Origin: Dictyostelium discoideum
Taxonomy: Eukaryota
DNA length: 64,000 bases
NCBI GenBank assembly: GCA_000004695.1
Contig: CM000151.3
Coordinates: 3,008,001-3,072,000, forward strand
Direction: 5' to 3'
Below the pieces are notes generated by a model. It was not told the DNA's origin and searched no databases. It saw only the letters and a list, made by a program, of their open reading frames with translations. A program made the position numbers and the translations under genes. Of the stretch, positions 7,478 through 8,308 are shown one piece after another. How positions within the stretch are numbered: position 1 is the stretch's first letter; each line of letters opens with the position of its first letter.

Positions 7478-8125
7478 ATGACAAATACAGATAATATGGA
7501 ACAAAAAGATTTCAATTTATTTGACGGAGCAATCTGTAGAAATAAAGATGAATTAATTGAAGAATGTGATATGAAAGGTCCAGTTGACCCAAATGATAGT
7601 GGTATTTTTATTGATAGATCATTTTCATATCATGTTGGTAGAAAATTTGGTGAAATTAAGTTAAAAGTTGATTCTCAAGGAACAACTAAAGGTTTCCAAT
7701 TTGAATTTTATCCATGTGGTGCATTCATCGAATACCTCGATTGCTCTTATGTTCCTGATCATAGTACCCTCACATTTTACAGAAAGGCAGGATATCATAT
7801 TCATACCACCTTAAAAACAGAGTTTAAAAGTTATTTTATGGCTGGTTTCGAAGGTTTTGGTGGTGAATTTGGTTACGATGAGAAGCATACCTATGATGTT
7901 GATAAACAAGATCAAATTCAACTCACAATTCAATTCAAATTCGATAAGGGTAATTATTATTGTTATCAATATAATATGGTTATGGCTCAAAAATTAGATG
8001 AAGGCTCAAGAAGTTACATTGATACTCTTATCAACTATAATAAAAATGATGTTGATATTCGTAAGGTTGGAAATGATCTTTACAAATTGGAAACCTTTAG
8101 TTGTTCCTTGAGAATCAACTTTTAA
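7478..8125 (+). CDS. Gene D: 215-aa protein of unknown function. The promoter and first 75 codons lie in the left arm, the CDS runs through the unique spacer, and the last 14 codons lie in the right arm. Possibly a fourth member of the A/B/C family (YYCYQ motif).
   Basis: Single uninterrupted ORF with coding-like composition across the spacer. The N-terminal 225 nt are identical to the minus-strand ORF 8084..8308. Confidence 0.6.
   Translation: MTNTDNMEQKDFNLFDGAICRNKDELIEECDMKGPVDPNDSGIFIDRSFSYHVGRKFGEIKLKVDSQGTTKGFQFEFYPCGAFIEYLDCSYVPDHSTLTFYRKAGYHIHTTLKTEFKSYFMAGFEGFGGEFGYDEKHTYDVDKQDQIQLTIQFKFDKGNYYCYQYNMVMAQKLDEGSRSYIDTLINYNKNDVDIRKVGNDLYKLETFSCSLRINF
7704..8082. other. Unique 379-bp spacer at the centre of the palindrome; coding, lying inside gene D
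   Basis: Sequence 7704.. is not the reverse complement of ..8082. Base 7704 is a and base 8082 is a, whereas 7703 g pairs with 8083 c. The spacer has higher GC and a coding-like codon pattern. Confidence 0.9.
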
Positions 8126-8308
8126 CTTAATTTCACCAAATTTTCTACCAACATGATATGAAAATGATCTATCAATAAAAATACCACTATCATTTGGGTC
8201 AACTGGACCTTTCATATCACATTCTTCAATTAATTCATCTTTATTTCTACAGATTGCTCCGTCAAATAAATTGAAATCTTTTTGTTCCATATTATCTGTA
8301 TTTGTCAT
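8006..8308 (-). pseudogene. Truncated inverted copy of gene D. 75 codons are identical (8084..8308), then 25 spacer-derived out-of-context codons and a stop. It retains the duplicated promoter.
   Basis: Identical translation MTNTDNMEQKDF...QGTTKGFQF, then divergence exactly at the arm/spacer boundary. Confidence 0.7.

Follow-up and report, generated by a model that had tools for sequence, protein, structure and literature searches.

A BB_PF gene cut at what is very probably the centre of the AX3/AX4 chromosome 2 inverted duplication of Dictyostelium discoideum

At the left end of the window, by which we mean the whole 64-kb stretch of DNA that was analysed, nucleotides 1-7703 and 8083-15785 form two arms that mirror each other exactly, 100% complementary over 7,703 nt, with 379 nt between them (Table 1). 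The start of the window cuts the left arm, and 7,703 nt is a lower bound on arm length. A perfect inverted repeat of 7.7 kb cannot have arisen by chance. The match holds even through poly(A)/poly(T) tracts longer than 60 nt (6997-7060 and 8726-8789; also 4266-4300 and 1106-1130), whereas the independent AX2-type assembly L002 departs from the window at such tracts only. The reference arms were probably assembled once and then mirrored, and their 100% identity is therefore not independent evidence.

The arms carry a DUF229-family gene (PF02995, 126 bits) at 1572-3008, with its mirror at 12778-14214. For this gene, wild genomes annotate longer models (about 770 aa), which makes the window ORF at 1572-3008 one exon of a larger gene. 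Four BB_PF (PF18063, "beta barrel pore-forming domain") paralogues in alternating orientation occupy 3655-8125 and are mirrored at 7661-12131; in two of the four, a short intron splits the domain. The fourth paralogue, called gene D here, lacks a C-terminal segment that is retained by the paralogues at 4756-5754 and 6131-6933, the two for which the 3' exon was read. The segments in these two in-window paralogues are GNDLYFFVS...FINYLANHRNLW and ...FIDYLAANPSKW.

Table 1. Features at and around the centre of the inverted repeat, in window coordinates.
Feature	Position	Strand	Remarks
Left arm, ancestral orientation	1-7703	+	Runs on leftward beyond the window; non-duplicated contig L002 is colinear with 1-8084
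BB_PF paralogue	3655-4206	-	Left arm, mirrored in right arm
BB_PF paralogue	4756-5340 plus 5461-5754	+	Left arm, mirrored in right arm; long poly-asparagine tract in 4756-5340
BB_PF paralogue	6131-6532 plus 6535-6933	-	Left arm, mirrored in right arm
Intergenic region, 544 nt complete, about 9% G+C	6934-7477	.	Between gene D and divergent BB_PF paralogue
Chimeric gene D, 215 aa	7478-8125	+	Codons 1-202 ancestral (BB_PF); 203-215 and stop new
TG, left half of 2-nt inverted microhomology	7702-7703	+	Ancestral match through 8084, inverted arm from 8083
Single-copy spacer (proposed fold-back loop), 379 nt	7704-8082	+	100% identical to ancestral alleles L003-L005
Mirrored 5' fragment, 100 aa	8006-8308	-	75 ancestral codons and 25 new from spacer antisense, then stop
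CA, right half of 2-nt inverted microhomology	8083-8084	+	In ancestral continuation (TAC ATT) and in reverse complement of 7702-7703
Right, inverted arm (portion with in-window partner)	8083-15785	-	Arm extends beyond window end
Mirror copy of 544-nt intergenic region	8309-8852	.	Upstream of truncated 100-aa copy

Gene D extends over both junctions of the repeat. It has 226 nt in the left arm (7478-7703), the entire spacer, and 43 nt, stop included, in the right arm (8083-8125). A preliminary description of this DNA, made from the sequence, had reported a 215-codon ORF that crosses the spacer and ends 42 nt into the right arm, with its first 225 nt duplicated; the structure and the duplication of the 5' coding portion stand, and the counts become 43 and 226 nt. 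Its central point, that the inner edge of the duplication falls inside a coding sequence, is borne out by the positions of the arm ends, 7703 and 8083, within the ORF. The spacer is wholly ancestral BB_PF coding sequence, running from codon 76 position 2 to codon 202 position 2. On the minus strand, the mirrored fragment (8308-8006) consists of 75 identical residues and a new tail of 25 residues, VKIISNLTNINIIFIIVDKSINVTS, just as had been described. The 3' end of gene D, codons 203-215 plus the stop (8084-8125), is the antisense of mirrored codons 62-75. The antisense origin proposed for the last 14 codons thus holds, but the residues that differ from the ancestor number 13, KLETFSCSLRINF; the C-terminal string that had been quoted, NDLYKLETFSCSLRINF, is 17 residues long, and the NDLY within it is ancestral.

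An intact single-copy form of this locus is found in the 3.6-Mb GenBank contig L002 (GCA_054883475.1), in three Logan contigs from laboratory strains (L003-L005), and in four wild genomes (L001, L010, L011 and L012). L002, an independent AX2-type assembly, is colinear with window 1-8084 and differs from it only in the lengths of homopolymers and AT runs, which makes it a member of the same NC4 lineage; it is probably the AX2-214 assembly of PMC12745789. The Logan contigs match window 7275-8084 at 100% identity; past that point they part from the window and continue ATTTTCCATGCAGC. Colinearity of the ancestor with the left arm and the spacer identifies the left arm as the original configuration and the right arm as its inverted copy.

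The ancestral gene, 753 nt long, is a single intron-less ORF that encodes 250 aa. An intron removing the spacer and right-arm portion of gene D would have spoken against the preliminary description; since the ancestral ORF is continuous, no intron can rescue the AX4 reading frame. Where AX4 has KLETFSCSLRINF, the ancestral allele has 48 further codons (IFHAAHRNNLVV...LDTLN); after ...VGNDLY, all wild-type alleles read IFHAAHRNNLVVKTTDNLYKPVSYQTFVDYLCKNPEVWNTPNFLDTLN in place of the window's 13 residues. The preliminary description had reasoned that the ancestral gene probably had a different 3' end and that the C-terminus of gene D is a by-product of the rearrangement. Both statements agree with the isogenic single-copy alleles, which carry those 48 other codons and lack the 13 residues. 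Every wild-type allele encodes 250-251 aa, and its alignment with gene D runs precisely as far as residue 202. In a database search, the 251-aa orthologue of D. dimigraforme showed 90% identity over residues 1-202, the alignment ending exactly there, and this orthologue retains the conserved C-terminal segment that gene D has lost.

The 90% sequence cluster contains the 250-aa D. discoideum alleles, models of 282 and 337 aa, and the window's 215-aa sequence, which is present as a UniParc entry only. The 282-aa model (L002 10001-11237, P0004) and the 337-aa model (L011 10001-11420, P0003), both from GenBank, splice over the stop of the 250-codon gene into AT-rich sequence downstream. They look like mis-predicted fusions; the ORF in L002 was read, and it runs uninterrupted to a stop after 250 aa. 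Within the 64-kb window, neither the ancestral 3' end of the gene nor its downstream sequence was found anywhere. A homologue search with the lost 48-aa C-terminus returned no match; a second, with the nearest ORF on the downstream side of the ancestral locus, yielded an identical Logan copy and paralogues and nothing else.

These comparisons bear on the status of the two copies. Gene D had been called full-length, and this does not hold: 48 conserved C-terminal ancestral codons are gone, and with them positions 171-204 of the 204-position BB_PF profile, about a sixth of the domain. Against the Pfam model (gathering threshold 27 bits), gene D scores 45.9 bits over profile positions 19-170, and the ancestral 250-aa protein scores 76.7 bits over positions 19-203. 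The 100-aa fragment has no Pfam match. Both AX4 copies are truncated, gene D is a 3'-truncated chimera, and no intact copy exists at this locus; the 215-aa and 100-aa products are presumably non-functional. Sequence and profile searches of the PDB gave nothing significant, and an AlphaFold2 model of the orthologue (pLDDT 38.9, from a 7-row alignment) was unusable.

The 215-codon ORF could be read as a natural gene within an old, maintained palindrome. The open reading frame itself speaks for this reading, and nothing more does. The palindrome is absent from L002, from the three Logan laboratory-strain assemblies and from the four wild genomes, all of which have a 250-251-codon gene with the conserved C-terminus. 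This reading was rejected, and its probability is negligible.

The genes elsewhere in the window indicate where it comes from. Two single-exon ORFs match AX4 proteins. The ORF at 40030-40902 is an exact match to nitrilase 1 of D. discoideum AX4 (XP_644610.1; EAL70683.1 and EAL70714.1), and the ORF at 36520-37338 is an exact match to an AX4 hypothetical protein with two gene IDs, DDB_G0273515 and DDB_G0273459. Accessions of window genes come in pairs (EAL70683.1/EAL70714.1 and EAL70684.1/EAL70712.1), and genes in identical pairs with double accessions or IDs are expected of a duplicated segment. The dictyBase coordinates of the arms, which we take to be 2263132-3015703, repeated at 3016083-3768654, agree in arm length with the published duplication, have a 380-nt step between them as in the window, and would place the window at chr2:3,008,001-3,072,000.

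A mirror-image duplication of about 750 kb on D. discoideum chromosome 2 is already known, and it is a well-documented laboratory-strain rearrangement, not a new natural one. Its description is credited to Eichinger 2005 and Glockner 2002 (as cited in PMC2643946, PMC4374526 and PMC12745789). In the survey of Bloomfield 2008, it is duplication 2E on chromosome 2, 752,571 bp in size, present in all Ax3/Ax4-derived stocks and ending at DDB0217157 (Table 2 of PMC2643946). DDB0217158 is 370 nt beyond DDB0217157, near the "point of inversion"; by array CGH, the duplicated segment ends at gene D in every Ax3/Ax4 stock, and some of these stocks are reported to show instability of the ORF at the point of inversion (PMC2643946). 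The duplication is inverted and is missing from Ax2 and NC4 (PMC2643946, PMC4374526). A 2025 long-read study detected it in AX4 and not in AX2-214 (PMC12745789), and Hi-C and synteny analyses find an inverted duplication at the window locus (PMC11754127, PMC12745789). A partial DIRS element is reported at the 3' end of the duplication (PMC11754127).

The window and the AX3/AX4 duplication are alike in organism, chromosome, orientation and point of inversion, and no difference was noted; the published arm of 752,571 bp and the 370-nt spacing of DDB0217157 and DDB0217158 also fit the window. The window very probably holds the centre of the AX3/AX4 chromosome 2 inverted duplication, and this centre cuts a BB_PF gene. 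The interpretation offered in the preliminary description is supported, except that gene D must be counted as truncated and the event identified with the already known AX3/AX4 duplication.

AX4 is the reference genome, and AX3 and AX4 are standard Dictyostelium laboratory strains; the practical value of the present reading is modest, the duplication being well known. At this locus, AX3 and AX4 carry two truncated copies, and no intact one, of a gene from the four-gene BB_PF cluster; AX2 has this gene intact. The 215-aa and 100-aa models are to be treated as by-products of the rearrangement and not as genes. According to Bloomfield 2008, the breakpoint sequences still required detailed investigation (PMC2643946), and the anatomy of the junction now gives a concrete mechanism for the event, fold-back with minimal microhomology. 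The searchable literature yielded no base-level account of this junction, with its break after codon 202, its 2-nt microhomology and the 48 codons that the BB_PF gene has lost; the analysis seems a small addition to a documented feature.

At the junction, the ancestor reads ...GATCTTTACA|TTTTCCATGC and the window reads ...GATCTTTACA|AATTGGAAAC. The break follows nt 607 of the ancestral gene, after codon 202 (window nt 8084). The boundary at 7703/7704 is unaltered relative to the ancestor, and the junction is a clean single break with no filler. As the CA at 8083-8084 is common to both sources, the breakpoint can be placed between 8082 and 8085.

The base-level junction is read from the reference assembly alone, and its exact sequence could be an artefact of a chimeric clone or of in-silico mirroring of the arms, the duplication itself being real. 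The identity of the arms through very long homopolymers would suit such an artefact. So would the fact that neither product, of 215 aa or of 100 aa, occurs in the index of independent assemblies, the exact 215-aa product being recorded only as UniParc UPI0000002A1D. Short-read graphs would in any case not assemble through the centre of a palindrome, however, which makes absence from the Logan gene calls uninformative. The clean single break against a sequence-identical ancestral allele, without filler and in a canonical fold-back layout, argues against an artefact, as does the agreement of array CGH, Hi-C and synteny evidence in placing the inverted duplication or its end here. We regard an artefact at this level as very unlikely.

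A microhomology between 7700-7710 and 8076-8086 had been anticipated, and one is present (TG at 7702-7703, CA at 8083-8084), although it is only 2 nt long. In a simulation on the window, inverted microhomology of at least 2 nt occurred at 18-27% of random junctions (a chance of 0.18-0.27). The 2-nt match is thus compatible with annealing-primed fold-back and is not proof of it. The longest other inverted matches, of 9 nt (7616-7624 with 8071-8079) and 7 nt (7693-7699 with 8067-8073), are both out of register with the arms.

The same matches were considered in relation to non-allelic homologous recombination (NAHR), in which pre-existing inverted repeats, either BB_PF paralogues or transposons, would have made the junction. 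The region is repeat-rich, and the arm has four BB_PF paralogues in both orientations. Both sides of the junction come from the same gene copy, however, and NAHR was rejected on the ground that in-register inverted homology in the ancestor amounts to only 2 nt, the 7-9-nt matches being out of register. It is hardly conceivable as the source of the junction.

A single-copy ancestral spacer, an inverted copy whose start is a few hundred nt upstream of the point of breakage, and minimal microhomology are together the signature of a fold-back inverted duplication. We consider it reasonably probable that a break followed by fold-back produced the duplication, and we infer fold-back rather than fork switching, with a dicentric intermediate. 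In the laboratory ancestor of AX3, a chromosome break or fork collapse would have occurred inside the 250-codon BB_PF gene, after nt 8084, and the end would have been resected. The exposed 3' end may then have folded onto its own strand, the CA pairing with the TG at 7702-7703, 380 nt upstream. Once folded, the end could have primed fill-in synthesis that ran backward over the chromosome; 7704-8082 would have stayed single-copy, as the loop, and replication of the hairpin-capped end would have yielded a mirror-image chromosome. This chromosome would have broken again about 752 kb from the centre, and its end would have been healed. The partial DIRS at the far end (PMC11754127) suggests healing of a broken end.

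The main rival, template switching of the FoSTeS/MMBIR type, would need no free broken end: the nascent strand would have switched at nt 8084 to the complementary template 380 nt behind the fork, copied backward for about 752 kb, and switched a second time to resume downstream. It predicts the same local signature, a spacer with a 2-nt microhomology. The right end of the Ax2(Wee) duplication is also in its favour; this end is about 5 kb past the right arm of AX4, and only on one side does the Ax2(Wee) duplication extend beyond that of Ax3 (Bloomfield, PMC2643946). This hints that in AX4 the inverted arm is followed by the ancestral neighbourhood downstream of gene D, with little loss. Two points count against template switching, neither of them decisive: 752 kb is long for processive backward synthesis, and a healed broken end is the easier explanation for the partial DIRS at the 3' end of the duplication. 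Overall, template switching appears possible but rather unlikely.

Break and fold-back, the preferred reading, has close counterparts in human chromosomes. In Hermetz et al. 2014 (PMC3907307), every one of the 21 human junctions that were sequenced bore the fold-back signature; spacers measured 766-70,466 bp, and the microhomology was 2-8 bp, with 2 bp the value in 7 of 13. The human duplications resemble the AX4 event in having a single-copy spacer between direct and inverted copies. They also have inverted microhomology at the junction of the spacer and the inverted arm, where AX4 has 2 nt, a length within chance, and a far end healed by a telomere, a translocation or a ring (PMC3907307), to which the healing proposed for AX4 would correspond. 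They differ in several respects. At 379 nt, the AX4 spacer is shorter than every human fold-back spacer (766-70,466 bp). Human fold-back duplications adjoin a terminal deletion, whereas the AX4 event is interstitial in the final chromosome. The human cases are constitutional, whereas the AX4 event arose in a laboratory line that is haploid and propagated vegetatively.

Short inverted repeats beside a break are also known to give rise to palindromic amplification, in Tetrahymena rDNA and in yeast and CHO models, and the extrachromosomal rDNA of Dictyostelium is a natural palindrome. These systems share with the AX4 event a giant palindrome with a short asymmetric centre and intrastrand fold-back at a chromosome end. 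They start from pre-existing inverted repeats of tens to hundreds of base pairs and are programmed or selected; in the AX4 event, in contrast, only 2 nt are shared, and it was a one-off accident.

The truncated copy had been described as promoter-bearing, and this is a fair inference from the sequence, the complete 544-nt intergenic region being present upstream of both copies. This region (G+C 0.086, measured over 6952-7477) is presumably a bidirectional promoter. Two transcription units converge at the centre, with identical putative promoters pointing inward from either end of an 830-nt interval. By prediction, an RNA read through 7478-8308 would fold into a perfect 226-bp stem (-442.6 kcal/mol, z = -40.6). 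Past the chimeric stop, the first AATAAA is at 8174, and a normally terminated mRNA would for this reason still carry a stem of about 90-100 bp or more.

It may be that the centre is biologically active and not a silent scar, although we consider this quite improbable. The facing promoters would yield transcripts with stems of up to 226 bp, which might enter the RNAi machinery of Dictyostelium and silence the remnant gene and perhaps the BB_PF paralogues, and a DNA hairpin might drive the repeated deletions of the centre that are seen in Ax3-derived stocks. Bloomfield 2008 speculated that some ancestral sequence at the point of inversion may be missing even from Ax4 (PMC2643946); such a loss would fit the known instability of palindrome centres.

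The right ends of other duplications in Ax2 stocks also occur near this locus, namely those of 2B in Ax2(Wee), 2C in Ax2-214 and 2D in Ax2(M), and 2C ends at DDB0217158 (PMC2643946 Table 2). The break in gene D thus adjoins a recurrently rearranged region, which suggests a recurrent breakpoint hotspot near gene D. Loss of synteny downstream of gene D fits published remarks on a breakage-prone region.

No gene beyond gene D is syntenic, and what follows it, downstream of about locus position 10,950, is a variable region. Of the lineages compared, only L001 and L012 are similar downstream; in all other pairs, synteny ends within 0.2-0.45 kb of the stop, and the sequence beyond is unrelated. In the four wild genomes, gene D is 6-27 kb from a contig end, and no telomere motifs were found near the contig ends of these genomes. 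In the AX2-type contig L002, the sequence runs on for 597 kb. About 8 kb downstream of the ancestral gene, at 18870-19490, this contig has an ORF that resembles gag and carries a CCHC zinc knuckle (PF00098), which places a retroelement near the breakpoint region in a non-duplicated strain.
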